This document shows positions 13,355 through 60,064 of a stretch of 64,000 bases of DNA, in pieces; within the stretch, counting starts at the first letter, position 1; each line of letters begins with the position of its first letter. The translations under genes were made by a program, and so were the position numbers. The notes below the pieces were generated by a model. It saw nothing but the letters and a program-made list of their open reading frames with translations, was not told the origin of the DNA and searched no databases. The stretch is taken from the NCBI GenBank assembly GCA_947623825.1, contig CANQHQ010000002.1:10124-74123 (forward strand). Direction: 5' to 3'. The stretch comes from an uncultured Bacilli bacterium (GTDB lineage Bacteria > Bacillota_I > Bacilli_A > RF39 > UBA660).

Positions 13355-16297
13355 ATGAAAAAAACGTTTCTTTGGATTCATAAAAGAATTGGAGTTCTTA
13401 CGATTGGTTTATTGGCTGTTTTCATGATTGGAATAGGGCTTTTGATGAATTCTTATGCCTTAAATGAACCTGTACCCAAGATTATTTTTTCATCCCAAAC
13501 GTTAAGTTATGAAGAGAATGATTCAGGAAGTTGGAAAGTTGACAAGAGTGCCGAATGGATTGGCGAAGGAAAAGCGAGAATTACCTTTCAAGTTGATACG
13601 GTTTTAAGAACAGGAAATCCAAATACAGATGTCATTTTAGTTCTTGATATTTCAGGGTCTATGTCGGGAAATAAATTAGAGCGCGTGAAACAGGATTCTA
13701 TCAATTTATTAGATTCCTTATTATCGAATCCTAATAATCAAGCAGCATTGATTACATTCGATACAGGATCAGTATTGGTATCGGATTTTACTAATGATAA
13801 GGACAGTTTAATAGGAGAGATAAATCATTTAGAAGCTATAGGAACTACTAATTATTATCAACCGCTTGTCCATGTAGATGAGATTTTAAAAGACTATTCC
13901 AAGAAAGAAGATACAGAGTGTGTTGTTTTATTCTTAACGGATGGATATCCGAATGAGGATATTCCGAATCAGATAGGAGAATACAAATATTTAAAAAGTG
14001 AATATTCATGGTTAAATATTCATGGAGTACAGTACGAAATGGGAGAAGAGGTTCTAGATCCTATCAAAAAAGTTAGTGATAAGCAATTTATTGCGGATAT
14101 GACTACGTTGAACAATGTCTTGTTTGATGCTTCTGTTCTACCTATTCCTTATGACAAGTTTATATTAACGGATTGGATTCATAATGAATATTTTGATTTA
14201 AAGGAGATTTCGAATATCCAACCTTCTTTTGGGGAAGTAAAGTTGGAAGATGATAACGGAGTACCCAAAGTGACATGGGATTTAAGCGGTTTAGTGGCAG
14301 GACAAGGTGCCACGTTAACGATAGATATTGATTTAAAAGGAGATTCTTACACAGGAAGTGAAATTAATCCAACCAACAAGAGTAGTGAAGTGGTTTCTCA
14401 AATAGATGGGGATAAAGAAGATGTTACAACAAAGGAAAGTCCTAGTTTAAAAACACATTATAAAGTGATTTACGATGGAAATGCCCCAAGTGGATGTAGT
14501 GTAGGTGAGGTACCTGAAGCAAAAGATTATGCTGTATACGAAACAGTCGGAAAAAGTGATGCAGTTCCTATTTGTGAAGGTTATCAATTTAAAGGATGGG
14601 AAATTGTAACAGAAGAAGTGAAACAACTGAATGGTGACTATTTTCAAATGCCTGAGAAAGATGTAACATTACGAGCAGAATGGGGAAGAATGGGATTATC
14701 GAAGTCTGTGGAAGGAGAAGTTTATGTCCAAAAAGATCCAATTCTTCAAAAAATAGATTCTGATAGTTATAATAAAGAACTTTGGAAATATAAAAATTCT
14801 ATTACGAAGATAGTCTTTGAAGGGGAACAGACGTCAAAAACAGGTTCTACAGAGGAACTTACTTGGGATATTTCAGAAGCAAAAGATTGGTCGGTACGAG
14901 GATTATTGGTACCGAATTCAGATGATTCTTCGACTTATACTGCCTATATTCAAGGCTTGGAAGGAAGAGTGATTGCGAACTCAGATAGTTCTTACTTATT
15001 TGGTAGCAAAAGTTCTTCTACGTCATTTACAAAGTTAACGGCAATTGAGGGACTAAAGTTATTGGATACAAGTCAAGTAACCGATATGGCTTTTATGTTT
15101 TGCCATTGTGAATCCTTAACCAGTGTTGGAAATATAAGTGGCTGGGACGTGAGACAAGTAACCGATATGGCTTATATGTTTAGTTATTGTTATGCCTTAA
15201 CCAGTTTAGATTTAAGTGGCTGGAACACAAGTCGAGTAAAAGGTATGAGTTATATGTTTATGTATTGTAAAGTCTTAACCAGTGTTGGAGGTATAAGTGG
15301 CTGGGACACACGTCAAGTAACTGCTATGTATTTTTTGTTTGATGGTTGTAGCGCCTTAAAAAGTTTAGATTTAAGTGGTTGGAATACAAGTCTAGTAACC
15401 AATATGGGTGGTATGTTTTCCAGTTGTTCATCCTTAACTAGTGTAGGAGATTTAAGTGGTTGGGAAACCGGCCAAGTAACCAATATGAGTTTTATGTTTG
15501 ATGATTGTGAAGTCTTAACCAGTGTAGGAGATATAAGTGCCTGGGACACACGTCGAGTAACCAATATGAGTTCTATGTTTACTCGGTGTTACGTTTTAAC
15601 TACAACGATTAGTATTTTAAGTAATTCGGTGGCTAGTTATGATTTGATGTTCTATTCTGCTGCTACTAAAAATAATGCCAAGATTACCGTTAATTATTCT
15701 AGTGAATCAGAAGCATTAGTGAATCAAATGATTGCAACAAAGTCTGATGGTTGTAATGTGGTAAAAGCAAGTAGTCCGTATGTGGCACATTCCGTAACGA
15801 TTCAAGGTAGAAATGACATTATTGCGACTCCATCAAATGGAATGATGTTTACCAGAATTACGTTAACTCCAATCAATGAGGATTATATGGTTACTTCATT
15901 TGAAATGAATGGAACGAAAATAGAAGGTAATACCTTTGTTATGCCGAATGGGAATGCCATGATTACGAATGTAACTACTGGAGTGGGAACAGTGTTTGAG
16001 TCTAACCATAATCCATATGATAATAACCTAGATGATGAGTATGAACATACCTTTGAAGGCGCTACTTCTTTGACCGTTACGTTGGAGTATCAAACGGAAG
16101 AACCGGATGAATCGATGTATGATTGGATTGCCTTGTATGATAGAACTGGAAAAGAGTATGGTAAATATGGAAGAGAAACAAAAACAACAGAAACCATCGT
16201 CATCTCAGGAGATTACGTTAAACTTTTATTTCATACGGATGAGTTTGTAGATGGTTACTATGGATTCAAAGCCACTGTGGTCCCAAATTATGAATAA
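13355..16297 (+). CDS. Paralogous surface protein of 980 aa: signal anchor, vWA (DVILVLDISGSMSG), about 7 DUF285-type repeats and one C-terminal CUB-like domain.
   Basis: N-terminal 560 aa is about 75% identical to gene 436-6342. Same repeat motif WDTRQVTxMxxMF. C-terminus YGFKATVVPNYE matches the C-terminus of the first paralog. Confidence 0.9.
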   Translation: MKKTFLWIHKRIGVLTIGLLAVFMIGIGLLMNSYALNEPVPKIIFSSQTLSYEENDSGSWKVDKSAEWIGEGKARITFQVDTVLRTGNPNTDVILVLDISGSMSGNKLERVKQDSINLLDSLLSNPNNQAALITFDTGSVLVSDFTNDKDSLIGEINHLEAIGTTNYYQPLVHVDEILKDYSKKEDTECVVLFLTDGYPNEDIPNQIGEYKYLKSEYSWLNIHGVQYEMGEEVLDPIKKVSDKQFIADMTTLNNVLFDASVLPIPYDKFILTDWIHNEYFDLKEISNIQPSFGEVKLEDDNGVPKVTWDLSGLVAGQGATLTIDIDLKGDSYTGSEINPTNKSSEVVSQIDGDKEDVTTKESPSLKTHYKVIYDGNAPSGCSVGEVPEAKDYAVYETVGKSDAVPICEGYQFKGWEIVTEEVKQLNGDYFQMPEKDVTLRAEWGRMGLSKSVEGEVYVQKDPILQKIDSDSYNKELWKYKNSITKIVFEGEQTSKTGSTEELTWDISEAKDWSVRGLLVPNSDDSSTYTAYIQGLEGRVIANSDSSYLFGSKSSSTSFTKLTAIEGLKLLDTSQVTDMAFMFCHCESLTSVGNISGWDVRQVTDMAYMFSYCYALTSLDLSGWNTSRVKGMSYMFMYCKVLTSVGGISGWDTRQVTAMYFLFDGCSALKSLDLSGWNTSLVTNMGGMFSSCSSLTSVGDLSGWETGQVTNMSFMFDDCEVLTSVGDISAWDTRRVTNMSSMFTRCYVLTTTISILSNSVASYDLMFYSAATKNNAKITVNYSSESEALVNQMIATKSDGCNVVKASSPYVAHSVTIQGRNDIIATPSNGMMFTRITLTPINEDYMVTSFEMNGTKIEGNTFVMPNGNAMITNVTTGVGTVFESNHNPYDNNLDDEYEHTFEGATSLTVTLEYQTEEPDESMYDWIALYDRTGKEYGKYGRETKTTETIVISGDYVKLLFHTDEFVDGYYGFKATVVPNYE

Positions 16298-16298
16298 A

Positions 16299-16342
16299 AA
16301 AGAAGATGATTTTACTTGGATTTCATCTTCTTTCTTTTTTTT
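16299..16342 (+). terminator. Rho-independent terminator.
   Basis: Stem AAGAAGATGA / TCATCTTCTT with a 13-nt loop, followed by a T-rich tract. Confidence 0.6.
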
Positions 16343-16441
16343 CTTGTGGAATGAATTGATAAAATTCGCAGAAAATTCCTTTGGAAAGACTAGGAAATCC
16401 TCTTTTTTTTTGGTATACTTATCTATGATACAGGAGGATTT

Positions 16442-17527
16442 ATGGGACTATTTCAAAAGATTAAAGATATGTTTAAAGGAAATACTACTTCCTTTGATGA
16501 TAAAAATGAGATTCCAGTACAAGAAAAAGAAGAAGAAATAGGGGAAAACGAAGAAGAAAATGTCGAAATTGAGGAAGAACAGGAAACAGTTTCTCCTAAG
16601 AAGGAAGTCAAAATTTATGAGAAAGGACTTACGAAAAGTAGGAAGGGATTCGTTTCTAATTTAATGAGTTTAACGAGTCGCTATTCCAAGGTGAATGAGG
16701 AATATTTTGACGAGTTAGAAGAAATTTTGATTATGGCAGATATCGGAGTTCATACCGTGATGTCTTTTATGGATCGATTACGTGATAGGGTACGGAAGGA
16801 AAAAATAGAAAATCCGGAAGATTTGAGAGAAATCATTGTCGATGAATTATTCATTATTTATGTTGATGATTCTATTATGACAAACAAGATTCATTATGCG
16901 GAAAGTGGACCGACGGTTTTACTTTTTGTTGGAGTGAATGGAGTAGGGAAAACGACCACCATTGCCAAACTTGCATGGAAATTGAAAGAAGAAGGAAAAA
17001 AAGTTTTATTGGTAGCGGGGGATACCTTTCGTGCGGGTGCGACGAAACAATTAGAAGAGTGGAGTCAAAAAGTAGGGGTCGATTTCGTTGGAAAAGAAGA
17101 AGGTGCGGATCCGGCATCGGTTGTCTTTGATGGATTGAAGAAAGCTAAAGCAGAAGATTATGATGTCGTTTTTATCGATACAGCAGGTCGATTACAAAAC
17201 CGTGTGAATTTAATGAATGAACTAGAAAAAATCAATCGTGTGATTGCACGGGAAGTAGAGGGTGCTCCTCATGAAACGCTTTTGGTACTGGATGCCACAA
17301 CGGGACAAAATGGAATTAGTCAAGCGAAAAAGTTTAAAGAAATTACGAATGTTACTGGAATTGTCTTGACGAAGTTGGATGGTACTGCCAAAGGAGGAAT
17401 TGTGCTTGCGATTAAAGAAGAAGTACAACTTCCGGTTAAGTATATTGGTTTAGGAGAAAGAAAAGAAGATTTACAACCGTTTGATATAGAAAAGTATATT
17501 TATGGACTTTTTAAAGACATGATGTAG
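16442..17527 (+). CDS. ftsY: Signal recognition particle receptor FtsY.
   Basis: SRP GTPase motifs GVNGVGKTTTIAKLA and DTAGR. Acidic N-terminal region. RBS CAGGAGG. Confidence 0.9.
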   Translation: MGLFQKIKDMFKGNTTSFDDKNEIPVQEKEEEIGENEEENVEIEEEQETVSPKKEVKIYEKGLTKSRKGFVSNLMSLTSRYSKVNEEYFDELEEILIMADIGVHTVMSFMDRLRDRVRKEKIENPEDLREIIVDELFIIYVDDSIMTNKIHYAESGPTVLLFVGVNGVGKTTTIAKLAWKLKEEGKKVLLVAGDTFRAGATKQLEEWSQKVGVDFVGKEEGADPASVVFDGLKKAKAEDYDVVFIDTAGRLQNRVNLMNELEKINRVIAREVEGAPHETLLVLDATTGQNGISQAKKFKEITNVTGIVLTKLDGTAKGGIVLAIKEEVQLPVKYIGLGERKEDLQPFDIEKYIYGLFKDMM

Positions 17528-17535
17528 GTGAGATT

Positions 17536-17826
17536 GTGGATAGAAAATTTTATTATAACCAATTGTATGATTACTACGGCACTCTATTTACAGAGAAACA
17601 GAGAGCGTATTTTGAAGATTATTACTTTCGTGATTTATCTTTAGGAGAAATTGCCGAGAATAATGATGTTAGTCGAAATGCAGTTCATGGACAAATTAAA
17701 ATTGTGGAAGAAAAACTAGAATATTATGAGGAACATTTAAAACTCTGTGAAAAAGCAGAAAAAATCCGACATCTTCTTTCCTCTGTCGATGAAGATGTTC
17801 GTGAAAAAATAGAAGATTTACTTTAA
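17536..17826 (+). CDS. ylxM: YlxM/UPF0122 family putative DNA-binding protein, the SRP-operon HTH protein, with a GTG start.
   Basis: 96 aa. LF.EKQR.YFEDYYF.DLSLGEIAE...VSRNAV..QIK matches the YlxM consensus. It sits between ftsY and ffh as in Bacillus. Confidence 0.7.
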   Translation: MDRKFYYNQLYDYYGTLFTEKQRAYFEDYYFRDLSLGEIAENNDVSRNAVHGQIKIVEEKLEYYEEHLKLCEKAEKIRHLLSSVDEDVREKIEDLL

Positions 17827-17853
17827 TAAAAAAGAAGAAAAGGGGAAGGAAAT

Positions 17854-19704
17854 ATGTTTGAGAAAATCACATTTATTTCTGATAGTGGGGCTAATATTAA
17901 GATACGTGAAGGTGGAGAAGTGGTCGAAGACTTAATGAATCTCCATGTATTGTTTGAAGATTCAGATAAAAAGGTCGTTGCGGAAATTGAAAATATTAAT
18001 GATGGGATTGTCGGAACGAAATTTTTAGGTGAGATTGCTAATGGAAAGTTTGTGACCGGTATTATTCGAAAACCAGGACTCAATTCTACAGTACGGATTA
18101 TTACGCGAGAAGAGTTTGCGATGCTTGTGACACAAGATAGTGAAGAAGCTATTTTACTTGGGTATAGTCCTTTGTATAATAATTATCCTATTCGGGTAAA
18201 TGTCAACGATTTATTTAGTAACCACTTAGCGATTTTTGGAAATACCGGTAGTGGAAAAAGTTGTGGCGTTGCTAGTATTCTACAAAATTTATTTAATTGT
18301 CCAGGTTTTTTACCTTATAATGCCAACTTTATTATTTTTGATTCTACTGGTGAATATAAAAATGCTTTTTCTAAGATTAATACAGTCGATCCCAATTATC
18401 GGTATAACCTTTATTCTACTTCCGATGAAATCACGGATAAGGCTGAAAAACTACGTATTCCTTTATGGCTTTTGACGGTAGATGATTTTGCTTTGCTTTT
18501 ATCCGCCACTTCTCATACGCAAATTCCGATTATTGAACGAATGATTCAATTAGTGAATATTTTTCAATCTCCGGATATCAATGTGGAGGCTTTTAAAGAC
18601 CATTTGATTGCCAAAGCGATTATGAGTATTCTTTATTCCAACGAAACTTCCGCTAAAAAGAGGGATGATATTTTTTCTATTCTTATTTCTTGTTCGACCC
18701 ATAACTTTAGTTTAGAGTCAGAAATTATGGGAGTTGGATATAGTCGGAAATTCCGTGAATGCTTTGTCATCGATTCCTTAGGACAGTTTGCTGAAAGTGT
18801 GTTAATTACGAAGTATGTGGCTGATTTTATTAATGAAGATTTTGACGATTTGGTTATTACGAAGACAAATTATTTTACACTTGAAGATTTGGAAGTTGCG
18901 TTGAACTTTACATTAATTAGTGAGGGTTGGCTAAAGAATGAGAAAACTTATGGAGACGCTGTAACATTAAAAGTACGCTTACATACGTTGATTATTGGTG
19001 GATACTCTCGTTTCTTCAAACTCGATCGTTTTATTGACAAAAGAACGTATTTACATGACTTGTTATTTGACAATAATGGACGTAAATACCAAGTTATTAA
19101 CTTCAATTTGGAAGATGTCGATGATAATTTTGCGAAAGTACTGGCTAAGATTTTTTCTCGTATCGTATTTGATTTCGCTAAGAAATTGGAACAGAGGGCT
19201 TCCGTTCCGTTTAATATTATTTTGGAAGAAGCCCATCGATATATTCAAAATGATAATGACCAATTCCTCTTAGGATATAATATTTTTGATCGAATTTCTA
19301 AGGAAGGTCGTAAATATGGAGTCATGTTGACCTTAATTTCTCAAAGACCGGTAGAAATTAGTGATACGGTGATTTCTCAATGTAGTAATTTCTTAATTTT
19401 TAAAATGAATCACCCACGAGATGTGGATTATATTAAAAAGATGGTTCCCAATATTAATTCGGAAATTGTCGATAAACAAAAAGTGTTACAAGTAGGGCAC
19501 TGTGTCGGATTTGGACAAGCCTTTAAGGTTCCAACTATTATTCGGATGCAGTTACCGAATCCTTTACCACAAAGTACCAATGCCGATGTTTATGCTCGTT
19601 GGACCTATCGGCATAAACAGCAGGAAGAGGAACATCCTGGACAAAATCCTCTTCCTAATTTAAATATGCGTCCAGAAAATGCGGATTTAGCCAATCATTC
19701 TTAA
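17854..19704 (+). CDS. HerA/FtsK-superfamily P-loop ATPase (DUF87-like) of 616 aa, with an N-terminal HAS-barrel-like domain.
   Basis: Walker A IFGNTGSGKSCGV, Walker B-like ILEEAHRY and LISQRP...ISQCSNFLIFK, which corresponds to the HerA TQRP/arginine-finger region. RBS GGGGAAGG. Confidence 0.8.
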   Translation: MFEKITFISDSGANIKIREGGEVVEDLMNLHVLFEDSDKKVVAEIENINDGIVGTKFLGEIANGKFVTGIIRKPGLNSTVRIITREEFAMLVTQDSEEAILLGYSPLYNNYPIRVNVNDLFSNHLAIFGNTGSGKSCGVASILQNLFNCPGFLPYNANFIIFDSTGEYKNAFSKINTVDPNYRYNLYSTSDEITDKAEKLRIPLWLLTVDDFALLLSATSHTQIPIIERMIQLVNIFQSPDINVEAFKDHLIAKAIMSILYSNETSAKKRDDIFSILISCSTHNFSLESEIMGVGYSRKFRECFVIDSLGQFAESVLITKYVADFINEDFDDLVITKTNYFTLEDLEVALNFTLISEGWLKNEKTYGDAVTLKVRLHTLIIGGYSRFFKLDRFIDKRTYLHDLLFDNNGRKYQVINFNLEDVDDNFAKVLAKIFSRIVFDFAKKLEQRASVPFNIILEEAHRYIQNDNDQFLLGYNIFDRISKEGRKYGVMLTLISQRPVEISDTVISQCSNFLIFKMNHPRDVDYIKKMVPNINSEIVDKQKVLQVGHCVGFGQAFKVPTIIRMQLPNPLPQSTNADVYARWTYRHKQQEEEHPGQNPLPNLNMRPENADLANHS

Positions 19705-19719
19705 AGGAAGTGTATTGTT

Positions 19720-21474
19720 ATGTTTAGTAAGATTTTATATATTGGAGAACATGATGCTCAAATTCAATTGAAGGAAGATGCTTCTCTTGAAACCGATATC
19801 ATGAATATGCCACTTATTTTACAAGATAATGAAAAAACGATTTTGGCAGAAGTAAAGGATTTGTTGGATGGTTCTGTAAAAGTGAAACTTCTAGGAGAAA
19901 TCGAAGATGGAAAATTTGTCGGGGGAGTTCTTCGAAAACCAAGTTTAAATGCGGCTATTCGTCCTTTATCTGTCGAAGAGTTGACGTTGATTGTAGGAAC
20001 ACCGGCTTTTGGCTTTATGGAACTTGGAACGAGTCCGTTTTACTCTAATAAAAAAGTTTATGCGGATATGAATGAACTCTTTAGTTCTCATATGTGTATT
20101 TTTGGAAATACTGGTAGTGGAAAAAGTTGTGGAGTGGCTCGATTGATTCAAAATATTTTTTATAATCCACAATTTGTTCCCTATCGTTCGAATTTTTTGA
20201 TTTTTGATTCTTCGGGAGAGTACTATACGGCTTTTTCTAAAATGAATGAAATTAATCCGAATTATCATTATCGTTTTTTAACGACCAATGTAAATAGTAC
20301 CCATGAAGGGGAAATTCTTAATATTCCGATTTGGTTATTGAATGTCGAAGATATTGCCCTTTTGTTATCCGCTAAAACACATACGCAGTTATCTATCATT
20401 GAAAAAATGATGAAATTGGTGAAAATCTTTTCTCAATCTAGTTCGGATGCGACACAGTATAAAAATCATTTGATTGCGACGGCCATTATGACAATTATGT
20501 ATTCGAATCAAGGTTCTGCGAGTAAGAGAGATGAAATCTTTTCCATTTTGAATACTTGTCCTACGAATGAGTTTAATCTCAATGCCCCTGTGCAAGGAAT
20601 TGGGTATACGAGAAGATTACAGGAGTGCTTTTTAATTGATTCTTCTGATCAGTTTTCGGAACGTGTTTTATTAACAGAATATGTGAATCAATATATTGAT
20701 CCGGATTTAAATCAATATGAACCAAAAGAAGTTCAGTATTTCACTTTGGAAGATATGGAAAAAGCATTGAACTTTGCCTTGATTAGTGAAGGATGGTTAC
20801 GAAACGAAAATGTTTATGCTGATGCTGTATCTTTAAAGGTAAAATTACATGAACTTGTCATTGGTTCTTATGCAAAATATTTTAATTATAAACAATTTAT
20901 TTCTCTCGAACAGTACCTTAGCGGGTTGGTGATTCGGGATGGAAAGAAATATCAGATTGTAAATATTAATTTAGAGGATGTCGATGATGGGTTTGCGAAG
21001 TCGATTGTTAAGATTTTTACAAGATTGATTTTTGAAGTTTCTAGAAAGGTACAGAGGGGGAGTTTTCCATTTAATATTCTGTTAGAGGAAGCCCATCGTT
21101 ATGTTCAAAAAGATCAGGATGACTTCTTGTTCGGTTACAATATTTTTGATCGAGTTGCGAAAGAGGGAAGAAAGTATGGAGTCATTATGTCACTTATTTC
21201 TCAGAGACCAGTTGATTTAAGTGAAACGGTGATTTCTCAATGTAGTAATTTCTTTATTTTTAAGATGAGTCACCCTAGAGATATTGAGTATATTACGAAA
21301 ATGATTCCGAATATTACGGAAGATACGATTGAAAAGCAGAAATCTCTTCAAGTTGGAAATTGTCTTGCTTTTGGAGGTGCTTTTAAGATTCCTATTATTG
21401 TCAAATTGGATATGCCAAATCCGATGCCACAAAGTAGTAGTTGTAATGTTGTTGTTACTTGGACCAGTCATTAG
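19720..21474 (+). CDS. Second HerA/FtsK-superfamily P-loop ATPase of 584 aa, a tandem paralog of the previous gene.
   Basis: Walker A IFGNTGSGKSCGV, LLEEAHRY and LISQRP..SETVISQCSNFFIFK. Roughly 50% identical to the upstream gene over its full length. Confidence 0.8.
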   Translation: MFSKILYIGEHDAQIQLKEDASLETDIMNMPLILQDNEKTILAEVKDLLDGSVKVKLLGEIEDGKFVGGVLRKPSLNAAIRPLSVEELTLIVGTPAFGFMELGTSPFYSNKKVYADMNELFSSHMCIFGNTGSGKSCGVARLIQNIFYNPQFVPYRSNFLIFDSSGEYYTAFSKMNEINPNYHYRFLTTNVNSTHEGEILNIPIWLLNVEDIALLLSAKTHTQLSIIEKMMKLVKIFSQSSSDATQYKNHLIATAIMTIMYSNQGSASKRDEIFSILNTCPTNEFNLNAPVQGIGYTRRLQECFLIDSSDQFSERVLLTEYVNQYIDPDLNQYEPKEVQYFTLEDMEKALNFALISEGWLRNENVYADAVSLKVKLHELVIGSYAKYFNYKQFISLEQYLSGLVIRDGKKYQIVNINLEDVDDGFAKSIVKIFTRLIFEVSRKVQRGSFPFNILLEEAHRYVQKDQDDFLFGYNIFDRVAKEGRKYGVIMSLISQRPVDLSETVISQCSNFFIFKMSHPRDIEYITKMIPNITEDTIEKQKSLQVGNCLAFGGAFKIPIIVKLDMPNPMPQSSSCNVVVTWTSH

Positions 21475-21477
21475 GAG

Positions 21478-22995
21478 GTGTTTAGAATGGGAAAGATTTC
21501 TTCTACCATTTTATTGGTTTCTGGGTTATTTTTCATTATTGTGATTGCTTCTCTTTGGAAAATTTATAAGAAGGCTGAAAAACCTGGATGGGGTTCGTTG
21601 ATTCCTTTTTATAATTACTATTTATTATGTGATATTGTTTATCATAAAAAGATATTATTTCTTTTATTGTTTGTTCCTATTGTTGGTGAAATTTTTATGA
21701 TTGTTTTAATGTATCGTTTGGCTATGGCTTTTGGAAAAGGAACGGGGTTCGGTTTAGGAATTCTTTTCTTGCCATTTATTTTCCTTCCTATTTTGGCTTT
21801 TGGAAATGCCGAATATCAATTTAGAACGATTCAACATGTTTCGGTTGGAACGACTGTTCAGCCTGAGGGTTCTACTTCTGATTCTTCGGCTCCAGCGGAA
21901 GAAAAAAAGATAGATATTCCAGAAAATCCGATGTTAGATTCGCTTCTTCGACCGGTTCATGCACCACAGGTAGCAGAAGAACCAAAGCCAGTGGAGGGAA
22001 TGACGAATCCGCTTCCTTCGCAAAAGAGTACGGCGAGTATGATGGATGCGATTGCTTCAGTTGGATTTATTCCTTCAGAGACTCCTACCAGTCCTTCTCC
22101 TACGGCAGCTCCAGAAACTCCTGAATCTCAGATTTCTGAACCTCCCGTTTCTACTTTGGATTCTAATCCGGTGGTATCTTCGACTCCGAATGTTTCCAAT
22201 CCAGAACCTGTGGTAGGGGCTCCTGTAACGGAAAATTTGATGAATTCATCGGTAGGTTCTGTTCCTCTTCAAACTTCAACGATGGAAAATTCTGGAAATG
22301 GGAATGCGTCTTTTGATTTTATTTCTCCTCTTCCATCTACACCAGAGGCTTCGCCTTTTCAGATCCCTGAGATGACGCCAGTGGTTCCGCAAGTAGAACC
22401 TGTTTCTCCTGTTGCTGTCGTTCAGCAAGAAGAGAATTCTATGCCATCTCCTTCTATGGGAACAGAAAATGTGACTCTTGTTCCGCCTGTAGTGGCTCCT
22501 TCCGTTGTAGAGACCCCAGTGGTTGCAAGTCCGGAAGTAGCACCTGTTCCGGTTCCGCCTGTAGTGAATCTTTCTCCAGTTGTGGAAACTCCAGCGGTTG
22601 CAGCCCCAGAAGTGACTCCTGTTCCAGTTTCACCTGTAGCGACTCCTTCTCCAGTTGTGGAAACTCCAGCGGTTGCAGCCCCAGAAGCGGCGCCTGTTCC
22701 AGTTTCACCTGCAGTGACTCCTTCCGTTGTAGAGACTCCAGTAGTTGCGAGTCCAGAAGTAGCACCTGTACCGGTTCCACCTGTAGTGAATCCGTCCCCA
22801 GTTGTAGAAACTCCAGTTGTTGCAACTCCAGAAGTGGCACCTGTTCCGGTTCCACCTGTAGTGAATCCGTCTCCGGTTGTGGAAACTCCGGTGGTTGCGA
22901 GTCCAGAAGTGGCACCCGTTCCGGTTCCACCTGTGGTGAGTCCTTCTCCGGTTGCAGAAACTCCGGTGGTTGCAAGCCCAGAAAATCCGAACTAG
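21478..22995 (+). CDS. Membrane protein with a DUF5684-like N-terminal TM domain (KAEKPGWGSLIPFYNYYLL) and a long Pro/Val/Ala/Thr-rich low-complexity tail made of tandem repeats.
   Basis: Starts 4 nt after the upstream stop. Three or four TM helices in the first 115 aa, then about 390 aa of low-complexity sequence. Confidence 0.75.
   Translation: MFRMGKISSTILLVSGLFFIIVIASLWKIYKKAEKPGWGSLIPFYNYYLLCDIVYHKKILFLLLFVPIVGEIFMIVLMYRLAMAFGKGTGFGLGILFLPFIFLPILAFGNAEYQFRTIQHVSVGTTVQPEGSTSDSSAPAEEKKIDIPENPMLDSLLRPVHAPQVAEEPKPVEGMTNPLPSQKSTASMMDAIASVGFIPSETPTSPSPTAAPETPESQISEPPVSTLDSNPVVSSTPNVSNPEPVVGAPVTENLMNSSVGSVPLQTSTMENSGNGNASFDFISPLPSTPEASPFQIPEMTPVVPQVEPVSPVAVVQQEENSMPSPSMGTENVTLVPPVVAPSVVETPVVASPEVAPVPVPPVVNLSPVVETPAVAAPEVTPVPVSPVATPSPVVETPAVAAPEAAPVPVSPAVTPSVVETPVVASPEVAPVPVPPVVNPSPVVETPVVATPEVAPVPVPPVVNPSPVVETPVVASPEVAPVPVPPVVSPSPVAETPVVASPENPN
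22490..22980 (+). repeat. Tandem coding repeat of about 72 bp (unit PVVETPVVASPEVAPVPVPPVVNxS), roughly 6.5 copies.
   Basis: Near-identical 72/75-bp units are directly visible. Confidence 0.85.
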
Positions 22996-23075
22996 TAGAA
23001 GTGGTTTCACTTCTTTTTTCTTTGATAAATTTTCAGACTATAGTATAATACTAGTTGATACAAGGAGGGATAAAC

Positions 23076-24383
23076 ATGTTTGAAAGCCTAGGAGATCGAT
23101 TGCAGAGTGTAATGCATAAAATCAAAGGTTATGGAAAAATTACAGAAGAAAATATCAGTGATATGATGAAAGAAATTCGCCTTGCCTTATTGGAAGCGGA
23201 TGTGAATTATAAAGTAGTAAAAGAATTTACGAATGCAGTGAAAGAAAAAGCCTTAGGAGAAGAAGTTCAGAAAAGCATTCAACCGGGAGAATTATTTGTT
23301 AAAATCGTTAAGGACGAATTGACAGAATTATTAGGTGGGGAAAGTAAACCTCTCAATCTTTCAGGAAATCCTGCGATTTTGATGTTAGTAGGGTTACAGG
23401 GTTCTGGTAAGACGACGACCATTGGGAAATTGTCCAATTATCTTCAAAAAAAATGTGCGAAAAAGCCATTGATGGTTGCTTGTGATGTTTATCGTCCTGC
23501 CGCTATTGACCAATTAAAACAACTCGGAAAGCAATTAGGAATCGAAGTCTATGAAGAAGGAAAAAAAGATCCTGTAGAAATTTCTAAGAATGCGATTCAG
23601 TATGCGAAGGAACATCACTATGATTATGTTTTAATCGATACAGCTGGACGACTTCATATCGATGTTGAATTGATGCAGGAACTAAAAGATATTACAGAAA
23701 ATGTTCATCCACAGGAAACGTTACTTGTCATTGATTCGATGATGGGGCAAGATGCGATTCATGTGATTGAAGGATTCCATGAGTCCCTTTCTCTTACGGG
23801 AGTTATTTTGACAAAGTTGGATGGGGATACGCGTGGTGGTGTCGCTTTGTCCGTGCGTCATTTAACGAATGTTCCTATTAAGTTTGTTGGTACGAGTGAA
23901 AAATTAGATGGATTAGATTCTTTTGATCCAGAGCGGATGGCTGGAAGAATTCTTGGTATGGGAGATATTGTTTCCTTGGTAGAGAAGGCTACGGAGGCTA
24001 TCGATGAGAAAGAAGCCATGGATGCCGCTAAAAAGATGCAGTCAGGAAAATATGATTTGGAAGACTTTTTGAAACAGATGAAACAAATTCGAAAATTAGG
24101 ACCTCTTGAAAATCTTTTAAAATTATTGCCAGGTGCTAAGAAAATGAATTTAGATCAAGTAAAAATTGATCCGAAACAAATGGCTCATGTCGAAGCGATT
24201 GTTCTTTCTATGACTCCAAAAGAGAGACGGAATCCGGAAATCATTAAGGCTAGTCGTAAAACGAGAATTGCCAAGGGTTGTGGACGTTCTGTCCAAGAAG
24301 TAAATCAATTACTTTCTCAGTTTGAACAAATGAAAAAAATGATGAAGCAGATGATGAGTGGTAATATGAAATTACCATTTTAA
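23076..24383 (+). CDS. ffh: Signal recognition particle protein Ffh.
   Basis: Starts MFESLGDRLQ. GTPase motifs LVGLQGSGKTTT and DTAGR. Met-rich M domain (MKKMMKQMM). RBS AGGAGGG 8 nt upstream. Confidence 0.9.
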   Translation: MFESLGDRLQSVMHKIKGYGKITEENISDMMKEIRLALLEADVNYKVVKEFTNAVKEKALGEEVQKSIQPGELFVKIVKDELTELLGGESKPLNLSGNPAILMLVGLQGSGKTTTIGKLSNYLQKKCAKKPLMVACDVYRPAAIDQLKQLGKQLGIEVYEEGKKDPVEISKNAIQYAKEHHYDYVLIDTAGRLHIDVELMQELKDITENVHPQETLLVIDSMMGQDAIHVIEGFHESLSLTGVILTKLDGDTRGGVALSVRHLTNVPIKFVGTSEKLDGLDSFDPERMAGRILGMGDIVSLVEKATEAIDEKEAMDAAKKMQSGKYDLEDFLKQMKQIRKLGPLENLLKLLPGAKKMNLDQVKIDPKQMAHVEAIVLSMTPKERRNPEIIKASRKTRIAKGCGRSVQEVNQLLSQFEQMKKMMKQMMSGNMKLPF

Positions 24384-24488
24384 GACATGTCACTAAAAAA
24401 TTTAGGAAGAAAAAACAGATTTCTAGGCGAAGAAATTAGTATACTTTTTCTTATCTGAATATGATAAAGCAGATAGGAGGAATAAAAA

Positions 24489-24707
24489 ATGTTTAGAAAT
24501 GGTTGTTACGATCGTCAGAATGAAATGAATAACACCTTCAATATGAATGGAGATAACATGTCTGTCGATGTCGATGTTTCTATGAACAATAATGAAATGG
24601 CAGGTGCTGCTCCTATGCCAATGGGAACAGTTCAAGGACCTGTTATGGAACCTATGAGAGAAAGACAGGTACATCGTACGATTATGCATGAAGTACAACA
24701 AGTGTGA
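24489..24707 (+). CDS. Small Met/Asn-rich hypothetical protein of 72 aa.
   Basis: Strong RBS AGGAGG 8 nt upstream. Composition-biased sequence with no recognisable motif. Confidence 0.45.
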   Translation: MFRNGCYDRQNEMNNTFNMNGDNMSVDVDVSMNNNEMAGAAPMPMGTVQGPVMEPMRERQVHRTIMHEVQQV

Positions 24708-24919: not shown

Positions 24920-25684
24920 GTGGGTGAATTTATGAGTATAAATAAAATAAAAAATGAATTAATTAAACAAAAACAATCTAAATTCAAGGGTAATATATAC
25001 CATTATTCACAAGTTAATTTTGCTTATAATTCAAATAAAATCGAAGGTAGTAGATTAACTAGTGAACAGACTGAGGCAATATTTGATACATCTTCTTTTA
25101 TTCCTAAAAGTAATGATTTAATTAAATTAGATGATTTAACTGAATCTAAAAATCATTTTAAACTATTTGATTATATGTTAGATAATGTAGATGAACTCTT
25201 AACTAAAGATATGATAATTGAAATGGATAAGATATTAAAACGAAATACTAGTGATGAAGAAAATCCTAGATATAATGTTGGTGGATTTAAAGTTGTTCCT
25301 AACATTATAGGTGTTGTTAATGTTATTAATACTACTGCACCAGATGATGTTGAAAAAGAAATAGAAAAATTATTAAAGGAATATAATTCTAAAAGCAGTA
25401 TTACTCTAGAAGATATAGTTGATTTTCATTTTAGATTTGAAAGAATTCATCCTTTTGGAGATGGAAATGGGCGTGTAGGCAGAATCATAATGTTTAAAGA
25501 ATGTTTAAAAAATAACATTATGCCATTTATTGTATTTGATGATGATAAACCCTATTACATGAGAGGTTTAAAAGAATATGAGCAGGATAAAATGTTTTTA
25601 ATTGATACTATAAAACATGAACAAGATTTGTTTGAAAAAACTTGTGAAGAACTATTAAATTTTGAAATAGAAGAAAATAAGTAG
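24920..25684 (+). CDS. Fic-family protein, a putative AMPylase/adenylyltransferase.
   Basis: Canonical Fic core motif HPFGDGNGRVGR (HxFx[DE]GNGRxxR) near the C-terminus. Confidence 0.75.
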   Translation: MGEFMSINKIKNELIKQKQSKFKGNIYHYSQVNFAYNSNKIEGSRLTSEQTEAIFDTSSFIPKSNDLIKLDDLTESKNHFKLFDYMLDNVDELLTKDMIIEMDKILKRNTSDEENPRYNVGGFKVVPNIIGVVNVINTTAPDDVEKEIEKLLKEYNSKSSITLEDIVDFHFRFERIHPFGDGNGRVGRIIMFKECLKNNIMPFIVFDDDKPYYMRGLKEYEQDKMFLIDTIKHEQDLFEKTCEELLNFEIEENK

Positions 25685-25691
25685 AAAAATT

Positions 25692-25742
25692 ATCATCCTA
25701 TAAATTGAAATTAAAATTTTAATATAGGATGATTTTTATTTT
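25692..25742 (+). terminator. Rho-independent terminator after the Fic gene.
   Basis: Perfect 11-bp inverted repeat ATCATCCTATA / TATAGGATGAT with a 20-nt loop, followed by TTTTATTTT. Confidence 0.55.
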
Positions 25743-25800
25743 ATTAAAATTGTAGTATTTCTTATGTTACTTCTTAATATCAATCTAGAAATTAGGATGA

Positions 25801-25872
25801 ATTTCGTAAGTACGAAATAAGAATGGTGTATACACGTGCCCTTATTATATAAGAAGAACGTGGATACACCAT
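25801..25872. repeat. Two adjacent palindromic elements: the perfect palindrome ATTTCGTAagTACGAAAT, and the imperfect inverted repeat ATGGTGTATACACG ... CGTGGATACACCAT.
   Basis: Directly visible between the Fic gene and the recombinase gene. Candidate recombinase or regulator binding sites. Confidence 0.5.
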
Positions 25873-26302
25873 CTTCTTATCCTGCTCTTTTATAAATTAA
25901 TATATATTAAGGATTTATAGGATACTAGATGAATTTTTCTATAGTTTAAGACTCGACTCTTTTTCTTAGTAGAGGTAATATGCATCACGAAAAGGATGAT
26001 ATTTATGATATATGAAAGTAAAGTGAATGTTTATAAGTAGTACTAAATTCATGTTTAATTTGATTCTTATACAATTTAGTATTACTAAAATCGATGATTT
26101 ATCCATAAGTTTAAGTGAGGTGCTTAAAATATATGGATAAGTACAAAATTAATTATATTTTCAGTGTAGAAAAGGATATTAATGATATTTTTATAAAAGT
26201 TTTAAATAAAGAACTAAAAAAATATATTTTAATGATTTGTAAAAATAAAAAATACGAGGTACCATCATCATGTACTTACTCATCTCTAGAAGGAGGTAGA
26301 AA

Positions 26303-27868
26303 TTGTTAGAGAGTTTCAATAAGATATATCATGTTGGTCTTTATATCAGATTATCTCGTGAAGATGATGATAAGGTATTGATGAGTGAAAGTATTATAAA
26401 TCAGAAAAGTTTATTACTTCAATATGTAAAAGAGAATCATTTGAGAGTTTACGATATTTATATTGATGATGGTTATTCTGGGACTAATTTTGATAGACCA
26501 GACTTTCATAGATTACTGAAAGATATTGAACTTGGAAAAGTAAATATGGTTATTACCAAGGATATGTCAAGACTTGGAAGGGATTATATTGGAACTGGTA
26601 ATTTTGTAGAAAAATATTTTCCAGAACACAATGTTAGATATATTGCTGTTACAGATAATATAGATACTTTTTTAGATAATTCAAATAATGATATTGCACC
26701 ATTTAAAGCTATAATGAATGACATGTATGCTAAAGATATTTCTAAAAAAATAAAGTCTAGTTTAAAAGCAAAAATGAAAGAAGGAAAATGGGTAGGTGGA
26801 AGATGTCCATTTGGATATAATCAAGATAAAAATGACAAAAATCACTTAGTAATAAATAAAGAACAAGCTGATATTGTAAAAAAAATATTTAATATGTGTT
26901 TAGAAGGTTTATCATTTTATAAAATAGCAAAACGGTTAACGGATGAAAAAATAAAGACTCCTGCAGAGTATTATAGTTTCGAATGGAAAAGTCATTATAA
27001 TTTAAAGTATGGAGAGTGGCATTCTAAGACAATTAGAGATATTTTAACGAACAGAATGTATATAGGTGATCTAGTACAAAACAAAAGAAGCAAGGTAAAT
27101 TATAAAGTTAAAAAGATTGTTAGGAATAATTCTAATGATTATATTGTTGTAGAAAATACCCATGAAGCAATTATTGATAAAGAAACATTTTATGAAGTTC
27201 AAAAAAGAATACCAAAAAATAAGGGAAGAAATGAAAAAAAAGAAAATCATTTACTAGATGGACTTTTGTATTGCGCAGATTGTGGACATCGGATATCAAT
27301 TACATCTAGAAGAAAAAAAGATAATAAATGTTATACTATTTGTAATTACTATCGAACTTATATGAGGCAAAGACTTTGCACAACTCATTCAAATAATTAT
27401 GATGAGTTAGAGAAAATAATTATTCATTCCTTGACTAAAATGTGTTTGAATTATATTAGCAAAGATAAAATTAAAAATGATGTTTTATCTAATTTAGATA
27501 AAATGAGTAAAGTTAATGATAAAAAAGAACTACAGACACTTAATAATGATATTAAACAAATTAACCATAATTTAGATGATATTTATATTGATAAGTTAAA
27601 TAAAAAAATTACTGAAGAACAATTTGAAAGAGTTAAATTAAAACTAGAAACTGAACTTTCTATAAAACAAAAAAAGTATCATGAATTAAATGATAATAGG
27701 AATGATACAATAAATGAAAAATCTAAAAATAAAATGATAACAGAATATATTAATGAATTTTTATCAATGAAAGAACCTCATAGAGAACTTATAATTAATC
27801 TAGTTGATAAAATAGAAATATTTGAAGATAAGAATATAAATATTCATGTTACTTTTAATAAAATCTAA
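26303..27868 (+). CDS. Large serine recombinase with a resolvase/invertase-type catalytic N-domain, a recombinase domain and a zinc ribbon. TTG start.
   Basis: YIRLSREDDD catalytic-serine motif, a DGYSGTNFDRP box, then a CxxC...C cluster (CADCGHRI). 521 aa. RBS GGAGG. Confidence 0.8.
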   Translation: MLESFNKIYHVGLYIRLSREDDDKVLMSESIINQKSLLLQYVKENHLRVYDIYIDDGYSGTNFDRPDFHRLLKDIELGKVNMVITKDMSRLGRDYIGTGNFVEKYFPEHNVRYIAVTDNIDTFLDNSNNDIAPFKAIMNDMYAKDISKKIKSSLKAKMKEGKWVGGRCPFGYNQDKNDKNHLVINKEQADIVKKIFNMCLEGLSFYKIAKRLTDEKIKTPAEYYSFEWKSHYNLKYGEWHSKTIRDILTNRMYIGDLVQNKRSKVNYKVKKIVRNNSNDYIVVENTHEAIIDKETFYEVQKRIPKNKGRNEKKENHLLDGLLYCADCGHRISITSRRKKDNKCYTICNYYRTYMRQRLCTTHSNNYDELEKIIIHSLTKMCLNYISKDKIKNDVLSNLDKMSKVNDKKELQTLNNDIKQINHNLDDIYIDKLNKKITEEQFERVKLKLETELSIKQKKYHELNDNRNDTINEKSKNKMITEYINEFLSMKEPHRELIINLVDKIEIFEDKNINIHVTFNKI

Positions 27869-35697: not shown

Positions 35698-35994
35698 ATG
35701 GAAGATAAATTAGATATTTCTGTCGTAGAACATGTTATGGATCTTGCCAGAATTGAACTTACAGATGAAGAAAAAGAACAGTTTGCCTACGATTTAAAGA
35801 AATTATTTGATGATGTAGATAAAATTACGACGATTAAAAACTATGATGAAGAGAGAATGACATCTCCAGTATCTCATAATGCGGAAGTGCGAGATGATGT
35901 ATGTAAGGAAGAAATCTCGTTTGAAGAAGTAAAGAAGAATGCACCTAGAACGAGTGCAAATTTTGTGGAAGTGCCGGTGGTTATTCATGAGTAA
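35698..35994 (+). CDS. gatC: Glutamyl-tRNA(Gln)/aspartyl-tRNA(Asn) amidotransferase subunit C.
   Basis: 98 aa. ISVVEHVMDLARIELTDEEKEQF is typical of GatC. It precedes gatA and gatB. Confidence 0.85.
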   Translation: MEDKLDISVVEHVMDLARIELTDEEKEQFAYDLKKLFDDVDKITTIKNYDEERMTSPVSHNAEVRDDVCKEEISFEEVKKNAPRTSANFVEVPVVIHE

Positions 35995-37447
35995 ATATTT
36001 AGATCAAAGTATTTTGGAACTTCACGAACAATTAAAAAAGAAAGAAATTCGACCGATCGACTTGGTGGAAGAAGCTTTTGAAAGAATCGAAGCCAATTCC
36101 GATTTGAATTGTTTTATTACTTTGAATAAAGAAGAGGCTATTCGTCAGGCTAAAGCTTTGGAAGAGAAAGAAGTGGATCAACCTCTTTTTGGAATTCCGA
36201 TTGCGATTAAAGACAATATTTCAACGAAAGGGCTTCGGACTACTTGTGCTTCTAAGATGCTTGAGAACTATGTTCCTATTTTCGATGCGACCGTAATAGA
36301 AAAAATCAAAGAAAAGAATATGATTATCATAGGAAAAACCAATATGGATGAATTTGCGATGGGTTCTACGAGTCGGACGAGTTATTTTGGGGCACCAAAA
36401 AATCCTTGGAATCGTTCTCGGATTACGGGTGGTTCTTCTGGAGGAAGTGCTGCGTGTGTTTCTGCGCGATTGGTTCCACTTGCGTTAGGAAGTGATACGG
36501 GTGGTTCCATCCGTCAACCGGCTGGTTATACAGGAATTGTGGGAATGAAGCCGACTTATGGGAGAATTTCTCGTCATGGGTTAGTTGCGTTTGCCTCTAG
36601 TTTGGATCAAATTGGAACTTTTTCTAGAGACACGTATGAGAATGCACTTTTACTTAATATTCTCGTTGGAAAAGATGAGCGAGATTTAACGAGTGCCGAT
36701 CGAGTAGAAGAAGATTTTACGAGGGAAGTTGGAAAAGATATTCAGGGAATGAAGATTGGTATTCCTAACTATTTTGTGAGTGATATTGTGGCGCCTGAGA
36801 TTCGGGAAAAATTTGATGAAGTAGTAGAAATGTTGAAACAACAGGGTGCAACCATCGACTATATCGATATCGATTATATTGAGAACGCTGTTACTTTGTA
36901 TCAGATTATTGCGATGGGAGAGGCCAGCAGTAATTTGGCGCGATTTGATGGGGTTCGATATGGATATTCTTACCCTCATCCAGAATCCATTGAAGATTTG
37001 TATCGTAAAACAAGAAAAGAAGGATTTGGGAAAGAAGTCAAACGTCGAATTATGGTTGGTTCTTATTTACTTAGTGGAGATAATGCGAAAATCTATTGTG
37101 ATAAGGCTTTTCAAATTCGGGATGATATCTTGAAGAGTTTCAAAAAGGCTTTTGAAACGTACGATTTGATTATCGGTCCAACGACGACGACGGTGGCTTA
37201 TTCTCTTGAAGAAAATTTGGACGACCCATTAAAATCTTTTATGGATGATGTGTTGGTTATTCCTGTCAATATGGCAGGACTTCCAGGAATGAATGTTCCG
37301 ATTGGATTTAATTCGGATCATATGCCAATTGGAATGCATATTATTGGAAATCTTTTTGATGAAGCGAAAATGTATCGATTATCTAGTTTTATTGAGAAGC
37401 AATTACAGCTTTCTCTCGTACCGGAAGAAGGTGGAAACAATGAGTGA
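35987..37447 (+). CDS. gatA: Glutamyl-tRNA(Gln) amidotransferase subunit A (amidase).
   Basis: Amidase signature GGSSGGSAA and GSDTGGSIRQPA. Start at MSKYLDQ overlaps the gatC stop. Confidence 0.9.
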   Translation: MSKYLDQSILELHEQLKKKEIRPIDLVEEAFERIEANSDLNCFITLNKEEAIRQAKALEEKEVDQPLFGIPIAIKDNISTKGLRTTCASKMLENYVPIFDATVIEKIKEKNMIIIGKTNMDEFAMGSTSRTSYFGAPKNPWNRSRITGGSSGGSAACVSARLVPLALGSDTGGSIRQPAGYTGIVGMKPTYGRISRHGLVAFASSLDQIGTFSRDTYENALLLNILVGKDERDLTSADRVEEDFTREVGKDIQGMKIGIPNYFVSDIVAPEIREKFDEVVEMLKQQGATIDYIDIDYIENAVTLYQIIAMGEASSNLARFDGVRYGYSYPHPESIEDLYRKTRKEGFGKEVKRRIMVGSYLLSGDNAKIYCDKAFQIRDDILKSFKKAFETYDLIIGPTTTTVAYSLEENLDDPLKSFMDDVLVIPVNMAGLPGMNVPIGFNSDHMPIGMHIIGNLFDEAKMYRLSSFIEKQLQLSLVPEEGGNNE

Positions 37448-59331: not shown

Positions 59332-59499
59332 CAATATTGATTTTTTCAGAAACTTACCGATAAATAAAAAGTAAATAAAAAAATTTCGTAAGATGATTTT
59401 TGAAAATGAACGCAATTCTCTTCCACAAACTGTGGTTGAATATTGATAATTTGTGTTTTATATAATATAATGTAATGAGAAATGGTGCATTATTCTAGT

Positions 59500-60020
59500 C
59501 GATAACAATTATTACGAAGACGAGGGTAAAATATCGTTAAAGAGCATATCTGTGAAACATTTGGTGCTTGCTTAGTACGCCCAGTATTGGGTGAGTGCTG
59601 GATGGTAGAAATTATGGGCGCCCATAATGGCATGTGGACCCGACCCATTCTTTCGTGGAGACCTATTCTTGTGGAAATTTTTTTCTACAACTTAGGCTTG
59701 AACCTACTTTGTGGCGAACAGCTATGGGTAGTGTAGCTTGACTTGCGTGATTTGTGGGGATGAAGACAACTTTACTTCAGGTGTACATCTGAGATAAAGT
59801 ATTGCTAACTGAAACATGGATTGCAAAAAAGTATTAGTAATACTTCTGTGTCGCATGAGGAAAACTCCTAGGGTGATATTGATATAGGATTGCAGTGTAT
59901 TCTAAGTGGTAATCAAGTCATAGAATTGGTGACAATCTATTGCTCTCTTTCAAGGGGAACCGCTTACTGGTAACGGTGAGTAGGGAGTAGGGAAATCCAA
60001 CTTGACCTAAGGTACAAAGT
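59500..60020 (+). ncRNA. Candidate structured RNA or long regulatory leader: a GC-enriched, ORF-free segment upstream of the gene at 60065. Its class is not recognised.
   Basis: About 500 nt with clearly higher GC than its surroundings, no ORF of 61 aa or more on either strand, and local hairpins and palindromes (e.g. ATTATGGGCGCCCATAAT at 59611-59628). It does not match the RNase P, tmRNA, SRP RNA or TPP riboswitch consensus sequences I can recall. Confidence 0.25.
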
Positions 60021-60064
60021 TTACTATATGAATTACCATTTCTTATTTTTTATTGGGGTGAAAA

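Follow-up and report, generated by a model that had tools for sequence, protein, structure and literature searches.

HerA-family ATPases without an effector partner are probably a vertically inherited part of the ftsY-ylxM-ffh region in uncultured gut Bacilli

Most current work on bacterial HerA ATPases concerns antiphage systems of two components, in which HerA is the motor. Here, we describe two HerA-family ring ATPases, HerA-A and HerA-B, encoded between ylxM and ffh in the signal recognition particle (SRP) operon of an uncultured Bacilli bacterium (contig CANQHQ010000002.1; the whole stretch of 64,000 nucleotides that was analysed is called the window). They are followed by a gene for a membrane protein with a DUF5684 domain, here called gene 3, and the original prediction had taken the three genes as an insertion that splits a conserved ftsY-ylxM-ffh operon. 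Comparison with related genomes leads to a different view. HerA directly after ylxM appears to be the ancestral state of a large lineage of gut Bacilli and not a recent insertion, and we consider it very probable that the two ATPases represent a core, vertically inherited HerA without effector, and not a three-gene module. The genes of the region, in window coordinates, are the following.

16442-17527, + strand: ftsY (SRP receptor), first gene of the unit; Pfam SRP54 (E=3.3e-79) and SRP54_N
17536-17826, + strand: ylxM (UPF0122 helix-turn-helix protein); Pfam PF04297 (E=2.9e-26)
17854-19704, + strand: HerA-A, HerA-family ring ATPase of 616 amino acids (aa); Pfam DUF87 (E=3.9e-23)
19720-21474, + strand: HerA-B, paralog of HerA-A, 584 aa; Pfam DUF87 (E=1.3e-22) and a PADLOC HerA match
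21478-22995, + strand: gene 3, DUF5684 membrane protein with a Pro-rich tail, 505 aa; Pfam PF18936 (E=1.5e-20)
23055-24383, + strand: open reading frame (ORF) of ffh (SRP54 homolog), probable start ATG 23076; Pfam SRP54, SRP_SPB and SRP54_N

The ORFs and Pfam matches bear out the prediction as to which genes lie between ylxM and ffh. Its spacings hold as well: the ORF coordinates leave 27, 15 and 3 nt between ylxM, HerA-A, HerA-B and gene 3, and 80 nt between gene 3 and ffh if the latter starts at ATG 23076, behind AGGAGGG. For gene 3 itself ATG 21487, 8 nt past GGAGG, is the likelier start, which would widen the gap to HerA-B to 12 nt.

The position of HerA was followed in a scan of one genome per species, which gave at least 573 genomes with a HerA relative; the best 80 loci were analysed, and the best 80 of these genomes are all uncultured Bacilli, recorded as Tenericutes or Erysipelotrichaceae. 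An ftsY-ylxM-HerA arrangement on one strand was found in 55 of the 80 species-level loci from uncultured gut Bacilli, a share by position and not a prevalence in the lineage, since all 80 were picked as HerA-positive. In the SRP-linked loci ylxM always lies immediately 5' of HerA, with a median gap of 25 nt. The closest relative (L091, 93% identity to HerA-A) has ftsY-ylxM-HerA-HerA-DUF5684-ffh. At 88% (L005/L006) the two HerA genes are followed by an unrelated protein of 472 aa without Pfam match and then by ffh, and at 78% (L092) and 73% (L004) identity to HerA-A the order is HerA-HerA-ffh. Candidatus Faecenecus (L002/L003, 61%) has ftsY-ylxM-HerA-ffh, with one HerA copy. The comparison of the ylxM-ffh junction that had been proposed as a check on the insertion thus finds HerA in place at 93%, 88%, 78%, 73% and 61% identity, and gene 3 at 93% only. 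The distance to ffh is less constant: of the 28 loci that have ffh inside the retrieved flank, 16 have it no more than 105 nt past the HerA stop and the remaining 12 at a distance of 0.4-6.2 kb, and in 11 loci it is missing from at least 7 kb of retrieved flank. Because ylxM stays while the distance to ffh varies, ylxM-HerA would be the invariant pair, with a breakpoint-prone site 3' of HerA.

The history of the HerA gene resembles that of its neighbours. Loci that are more alike in HerA are also more alike in FtsY (Mantel r=0.53 on pairwise identities, reached by 0 of 999 permutations) and in Ffh (Mantel r=0.66). Measured against the 93% relative, HerA-A and HerA-B have ratios of non-synonymous to synonymous substitution rates (dN/dS) of about 0.03 and 0.06, compared with 0.05 for ftsY and 0.04 for ffh; all of these ratios are rough because synonymous sites are saturated (dS about 1.4-4). 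The residues for ATP hydrolysis are retained in 165 of the 166 collected family members. From this co-divergence, low dN/dS and catalytic retention, HerA appears to be vertically inherited under constraint at the level of housekeeping genes. A recent or mobile insertion was ruled out, since synteny is conserved, HerA co-diverges with its neighbours and viral contigs carry no close relatives. It is the HerA gene and not the trio that occurs at this position across the lineage, and it carries no known housekeeping annotation.

Both ATPases belong to the HerA family and display all the family features that were tested. They share 53% identity over their full length, and Pfam PF01935 (DUF87, the HerA central domain) matches them with 83.1 and 81.4 bits at a cutoff of 23.2. 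The PADLOC HerA profile PDLC04102 covers residues 56-592 of HerA-A (E=1.7e-114), and the sequence matches in the Protein Data Bank (PDB) are the HerA chains of DUF4297-HerA, SIR2-HerA and archaeal HerA, the best being 9c1m (E=1.7e-46). The predicted HAS barrel and the motifs GNTGSGKS, (I/L)LEEAHRY and SQRP...SQCSNF were recovered in HerA-A and HerA-B from the sequence and, for HerA-A, from an AlphaFold2 monomer model (pLDDT 81.9, pTM 0.79). This model has a HAS barrel at about residues 1-116 (beta-strands 2-116), a RecA-like core, a helix-bundle insertion at about 209-404 and a disordered end of some 40 aa. In a Foldseek comparison of the model with the PDB the top 50 matches are all HerA, with TM scores of 0.6-0.76 for full-length matches. 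The Walker A lysine K135, E458/E459 (catalytic Glu) and the arginine finger R498 of HerA-A are conserved; the equivalents of K135, E459 and R498 are those retained in all but one of the family members. Profile searches found no nuclease, SIR2 or other effector domain fused to either ATPase, as had been predicted, and hydropathy gave no membrane segment in the HerA protein.

The subfamily is narrow: in an exhaustive search of 1.84 billion cluster representatives, about 20 clusters (50% identity) match full length in one stretch at 31-58% identity, and remoter HerA proteins align to the N- and C-terminal core only. Conjugation and FtsK models give P-loop matches only, under or barely at cutoff; the match to PF01580 (FtsK_SpoIIIE) spans 26-43 residues around the P-loop, and TrwB_AAD_bind, AAA_10 and CD1110 fall below cutoff. 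Unlike the ATPases of conjugative type IV secretion systems (VirB4 or the coupling protein), those of the window have no relaxase, mating-pair or other transfer genes in their operon, which speaks against the conjugation family that had been offered as an alternative.

The characterised proteins closest to the window ATPases in both sequence and fold are the HerA subunits of SIR2-HerA and DUF4297-HerA, and PADLOC HerA profiles match at E=1e-114. This raises the possibility of an antiphage HerA after all, as a derivative without SIR2, with its effector elsewhere or unrecognised, or acting alone on phage DNA, and parked in a stable operon. The HerA of SIR2-HerA (Nezha) shares the HAS barrel, the RecA-like core, the helix-bundle insertion and identical Walker A/B and arginine-finger motifs, and DUF4297-HerA (PDB 9c1m, 8xau, 8ziq) provides the best PDB sequence match and is among the top structural matches. 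The nearest outgroup HerA proteins, at about 35% identity over the full length, come from Veillonella, Anaerovibrio and Prevotella, and in the inspected Veillonella and Anaerovibrio loci HerA directly follows a SIR2_2 gene in variable islands beside guaA; judged by gene content, these loci are the classical SIR2-HerA system. In contrast, the clade of the window has no SIR2 nearby, occupies a core position and not a variable island, and co-diverges with the SRP genes. A tblastn search with the Veillonella SIR2 found none in the window or in 166 related loci, and no other effector recurs in the 166 loci. Likewise, PADLOC and Pfam detected no DUF4297 (Cap4-like nuclease) among the window neighbours or in 10 downstream genes of relatives; the neighbours in this clade are ylxM, ffh or ordinary housekeeping genes, and many species have HerA flanked by ylxM and ffh alone. 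The island-like distribution of defence genes was not seen, the 55 of 80 HerA-positive loci with the syntenic core position showing the opposite, and the constraint on HerA equals that on the SRP genes. NCBIfam equivalogs for antiphage and repair HerA score 98-179 bits at cutoffs of 800-970; the antiphage models are missed widely by both ATPases (178.6 and 169.1 bits, cutoffs 850 and 800). Viral contigs carry only distant HerA, 22-33% identical over the full length, with one partial match of 40% on its best segment. The defence role that had been suggested is weakened by the missing effector, the core position and the lack of close viral relatives, and we regard an antiphage HerA as unlikely.

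The A-type and B-type copies from five genomes (the window, L091, L005, L092 and L004) fall into separate clades. The pattern points to one duplication in the ancestor of the genus-level group of the window, single copy being otherwise the rule; one species (L039) retains only the B-type copy.

Gene 3 shows a different behavior. Its DUF5684 domain is clear (74 bits at a cutoff of 27.4, residues 38-114), and three hydrophobic segments lie at about residues 5-110. The membrane domain and Pro-rich tail of the original prediction are thus both there, but Pro, Val and Ser are abundant along all of the ~385 aa of the tail (22% Pro, 20% Val, 12% Ser) and the PVVETP-type tandem repeats, which had been given as some 390 aa, are limited to its last ~170 aa.

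22480-22983, + strand: tandem repeat array within gene 3, 6.8 copies of a 75-nt (25-aa) unit (Tandem Repeats Finder, 83% matches, score 589)

The GC content climbs to 0.50 across the tail and is otherwise not anomalous; since the rise follows from Pro, Val and Ala codons, it is by itself no sign of foreign DNA. Gene 3 was found only in the window and in the 93% relative. Between these two the membrane domain is 65% identical and HerA-A 93%, and dN is 0.26 for gene 3 against 0.05 for HerA-A, about five times faster; the tail in the relative is S/N/P/T-rich without PVVETP repeats. Homologs of 45-66% identity occur in many phyla, nearly all of them stand-alone membrane proteins of 110-135 aa and at most about 213 aa, one of which adjoins pheST and murT-gatD, so that the ~385-aa tail lies outside the DUF5684 family. 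Since relatives lack gene 3 or have another gene in its place, since it evolves fast and since its homologs elsewhere stand alone, it appears to be a species-level add-on and not a conserved partner of the ATPases. A small DUF5684 membrane protein may have gained a fast-evolving, disordered, Pro-rich tail, its gene having landed in a rearrangement-prone slot between HerA and ffh.

This bears on the novel three-gene module that had been proposed, in which the two HerA ATPases would be anchored to the membrane by the DUF5684/Pro-rich protein for defence, DNA transport or secretion. In its favour, the three genes share one orientation with only short gaps between them, one terminator apparently follows gene 3, and the trio recurs in the 93% relative. 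However, the 88%, 78% and 73% relatives and all other loci either lack gene 3 or encode an unrelated protein in its place, its homologs stand in unrelated contexts, it changes fast at non-synonymous sites and its repeats are not conserved, and a single HerA is the ancestral state, the second copy being of genus level. We therefore consider a paired HerA and membrane-anchor module highly improbable. The slot between HerA and ffh holds fmt, priA, argS, ldh, a glycerophosphodiesterase, a DacA-type peptidase, pilin-like adhesins or an ABC transporter in other loci, and among these slot genes of relatives there is no recurrent family and no credible PADLOC match. The search with PADLOC that had been recommended thus matches HerA profiles on the ATPases themselves and yields no credible defence match among the downstream genes of relatives. 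A conserved HerA with swappable effectors before ffh was ruled out on the same grounds, the cargo of the slot being ordinary.

Two signals were identified between gene 3 and ffh, both of them pattern matches only.

22997-23024, + strand: terminator-like hairpin (22997-23014) and T run directly 3' of the gene 3 stop; consensus scan, 7-bp stem, 4-nt loop, TTTTTCTTTG tail
23022-23049, + strand: sigma-70-type promoter-like site for ffh, TTGATA-16-TATAAT, 11/12 match

The latter is the top promoter match within 16200-24600. Because the hairpin and the best promoter match sit between gene 3 and ffh, ffh in the source genome probably has its own promoter, and the ftsY-ylxM-herA-herA-gene 3 unit would end before it.

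HerA may also work with the SRP pathway or with YlxM, powering or regulating membrane-protein targeting or secretion by analogy with EssC/EccC or VirB4. The ylxM-HerA adjacency is invariant in the 55 species loci, ffh often follows HerA at no more than 105 nt, which leaves no room for a promoter of its own, and ylxM remains with HerA where ffh has moved away. Furthermore, at least 27 SRP-linked relatives have a small membrane ORF (about 76-115 aa, three hydrophobic segments) between ftsY and ylxM that overlaps the ftsY stop and ylxM start codons; Pfam assigns it to no family with significance, and the window lacks it.

L009 5339-5641: small membrane ORF between ftsY and ylxM; further examples in L008, L011, L014, L019, L036, L044 and about 20 more loci

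Since ylxM stays with HerA and not with ffh, and since this ORF recurs, HerA may have a functional tie to YlxM or to the membrane. The subfamily is nevertheless found away from SRP genes in 25 of the 80 genome loci and in 80 of 80 deeper metagenome loci, the characterised HerA proteins act on DNA, HerA has no membrane segment, and the operon link may be explained as synteny inherited within one clade. A role in the SRP pathway seems to us quite unlikely. An RNA element in the spacers of the operon was also considered and rejected, as the Rfam scan found none within the operon and the ftsY-ylxM spacer of relatives encodes the small membrane ORF.

The contexts outside the SRP operon give some indication of what HerA could do. 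The 25 genome loci that are not SRP-linked had their neighbours confirmed by Pfam. In four (L068, L073, L081, L083) HerA lies directly upstream of dnaA-dnaN-(x)-recF, and most others have aspS-gatCAB, HerA, a ThiF-family gene, rarA/mgsA and an xerC/D-type recombinase; HerA is just downstream of gatCAB in 12 of the 25. In the window, gatA and gatB are found at 35939-38855 (+ strand), about 13 kb downstream of the SRP operon. The SRP and gatCAB contexts of HerA may be connected through local rearrangement. Deeper loci were obtained from a metagenome scan seeded on members of 40-44% identity, which gave 80 further loci with proteins 39-49% identical to those of the window. In 40 of these, sepF comes after HerA (median 78 nt) and divIVA after sepF (median gap 25 nt), with ileS beyond, and this context is the tail of the Firmicute division cluster; in others HerA comes after yqeG-yqeH. 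All contexts of the subfamily are core and co-directional, and several concern replication, recombination or division. Five deep-clade loci (L095, L097, L102, L111, L113) have an EssC-like type VII secretion ATPase adjoining or near HerA on the opposite strand, with the P-loop HGPHGLIAGxTGSGKSE and, in Pfam, two FtsK_SpoIIIE domains; the synteny may be a coincidence.

The contexts beside sepF-divIVA, an xerC/D-type recombinase and dnaA could also be taken to mean that, in a reduced-genome lineage that has lost FtsK/SpoIIIE, HerA has taken over the pumping of the chromosome coupled to division. HerA and FtsK/SpoIIIE are ring DNA pumps of one superfamily, some members of the HerA subfamily lie in division or segregation neighbourhoods, and the window has a gene for a membrane domain plus linker beside the motor, an architecture that is loosely FtsK-like. 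However, the window ATPases lack the FtsK alpha and gamma domains and the N-terminal membrane domain, and a complete FtsK (alpha, motor, gamma) is encoded a few genes from HerA in seven deep-clade loci (L130, L135, L141, L142, L144, L145, L156), so that both coexist there. Replacement is ruled out for the deep clade and is very unlikely overall.

The reading that we favour, and to which as a whole we give an even chance, is that HerA is a hexameric DNA motor without effector whose gene has turned into a housekeeping one. HerA-A and HerA-B would be duplicated copies of a vertically inherited HerA ring ATPase without effector partner, a fixed core gene of a gut Bacilli clade (Faecenecus, Onthousia and metagenome-assembled genomes of the CAG:988/CAG:605 type) that would be expressed with the ftsY-ylxM(-ffh) operon in most genomes. 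The protein would form a hexamer, possibly a mixed A/B ring in the genus of the window, hydrolyse ATP and thread or unwind double-stranded DNA (dsDNA) through its central pore, in the manner of characterised HerA proteins. Its role would be constitutive and chromosomal, be it in segregation, in repair or in processing tied to replication and division, and not that of an inducible antiphage protein. The constitutive role in DNA housekeeping, taken on its own, is a tentative proposal that falls somewhat short of even. A more specific form, in which a domesticated and essential housekeeping HerA, sister to the SIR2-HerA ATPases, is coupled to the YlxM/SRP operon or to the divisome (sepF-divIVA, FtsK), is in our view rather unlikely.

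Known systems provide partial parallels for such a motor. In DUF4297-HerA, the HerA hexamers use ATP to thread dsDNA through the central pore (PMC12198126). The archaeal and Deinococcus HerA-NurA system belongs to the same family and fold (4d2i and 9x1m are among the matches), and there a HerA hexamer works on chromosomal DNA as a constitutive housekeeping enzyme, which is what we would infer for the window clade; the window ATPases are far under the NCBIfam cutoffs for repair HerA (98-124 bits, cutoffs 800-970). The closest functional precedent for an extra chromosomal pump would be CmdB of Streptomyces, which is not homologous at the family level. This chromosomal FtsK-HerA-superfamily ATPase is encoded in the cmdABCDEF operon and its loss disturbs chromosome segregation and septation (PMC2782261). 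It is non-mobile and encoded with membrane proteins (PMC2782261), and is an example of a housekeeping pump besides FtsK. In contrast to the window proteins it is VirB4-like and not a HerA, and it has five conserved membrane-protein partners, whereas the membrane gene of the window is not conserved. The literature library searched contained no report that links HerA with ylxM/ffh or sepF-divIVA, no housekeeping bacterial HerA in division clusters and nothing on DUF5684.

Several observations weigh against a constitutive motor. Both DNA translocation and the cellular role draw on family membership and gene contexts. The SRP operon, the commonest context, is not a DNA context; the contexts as a whole amount to about five independent arrangements, each inherited within a clade, and are suggestive but not statistical. 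The selection of the 80 loci as HerA-positive, described above, belongs here as well. Neither NurA nor Mre11 or Rad50 was found among the flanking genes in the loci examined, although an unlinked NurA may exist elsewhere in the genome. Defence HerA alone has low ATPase activity and its partner makes a planar active ring (PMC12198126), and because the defence protein needs this partner, an active motor without one is not guaranteed. Finally, a single exception stands out among the 166 members: the P0128-type HerA (L254 406-3237 and L255 8001-10832), a protein of 943 aa and the sole copy between ylxM and ffh, carries DN in place of EE and GEVS in place of SQRP and so lacks both the catalytic Glu and the arginine finger. 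It is an intact ORF in several samples and keeps its P-loop, which hints at a role as scaffold or in ATP binding more than as motor; in this lineage ring formation or ATP binding may be sufficient, or another copy may exist elsewhere in the genome.

HerA in general might accordingly be viewed as mainly an ATP-binding ring scaffold or switch whose low-complexity tails recruit other factors. Besides the P0128 type and the poor ATPase activity of isolated defence HerA rings (PMC12198126), 18 HerA proteins from SRP-linked loci and the representatives P0121, P0122 and P0125 are in line with this idea, in that they bear disordered, low-complexity tails 68-423 aa long (tailed 3' ends include L008, L009, L011, L014-L017, L019, L033, L036, L038, L043, L051 and L062). 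The tails are rich in N/S/T/P/Q/I and mostly C-terminal, once N-terminal. However, they differ in length and composition between close species and are missing from most members, and every hydrolysis residue is retained in 165 of 166 members, an argument that hydrolysis matters. A scaffold is, in our opinion, improbable. As to the housekeeping motor that we favour, the evolutionary observation behind it appears clear and well supported and corrects the reading as an insertion; a new mechanism has no direct support.

Other features of the window were noted in passing. A gene with a Fic domain and one for a large serine recombinase (24920-27868, + strand), with a GC content of 0.24-0.27 compared with ~0.34 nearby, seem to form a small mobile element between ffh and recX, where relatives have rpoZ-recX; the 88% relatives (L005/L006) have a similar pair upstream of ftsY, which looks like an element moving around the operon. 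Upstream of the operon, two surface-type proteins of 1968 and 980 aa (436-6342 and 13355-16297, + strand), with an N-terminal VWA domain and multiple DUF285 repeats (Mycoplasma-type leucine-rich), flank an RNase J gene. A full-length OLE (ornate large extremophilic) RNA lies at 59466-60055 (+ strand; Rfam RF01071, 370 bits, E=3e-105), and the short ORFs that follow at 60065-61303 could be candidates for the usual OLE protein partners.

Across hundreds of species-level genomes from an abundant, uncultured gut lineage, an effector-less HerA under constraint at the level of housekeeping genes is thus placed inside operons that are essential: those of the SRP, of the replication origin and of the end of the division cluster. 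A match to a HerA profile alone should consequently not count as evidence of a defence system. If the protein is a constitutive DNA motor, defence and core cell biology would have exchanged a machine, in either direction, and chromosome handling in gut bacteria with reduced genomes would have an unrecognised component. If its tie to YlxM is functional, it would open a route to studying this conserved protein. A domesticated motor of this kind, if it exists, would be a new chromosome- or membrane-linked bacterial machine without described counterpart and would provide YlxM with a DNA-motor partner.

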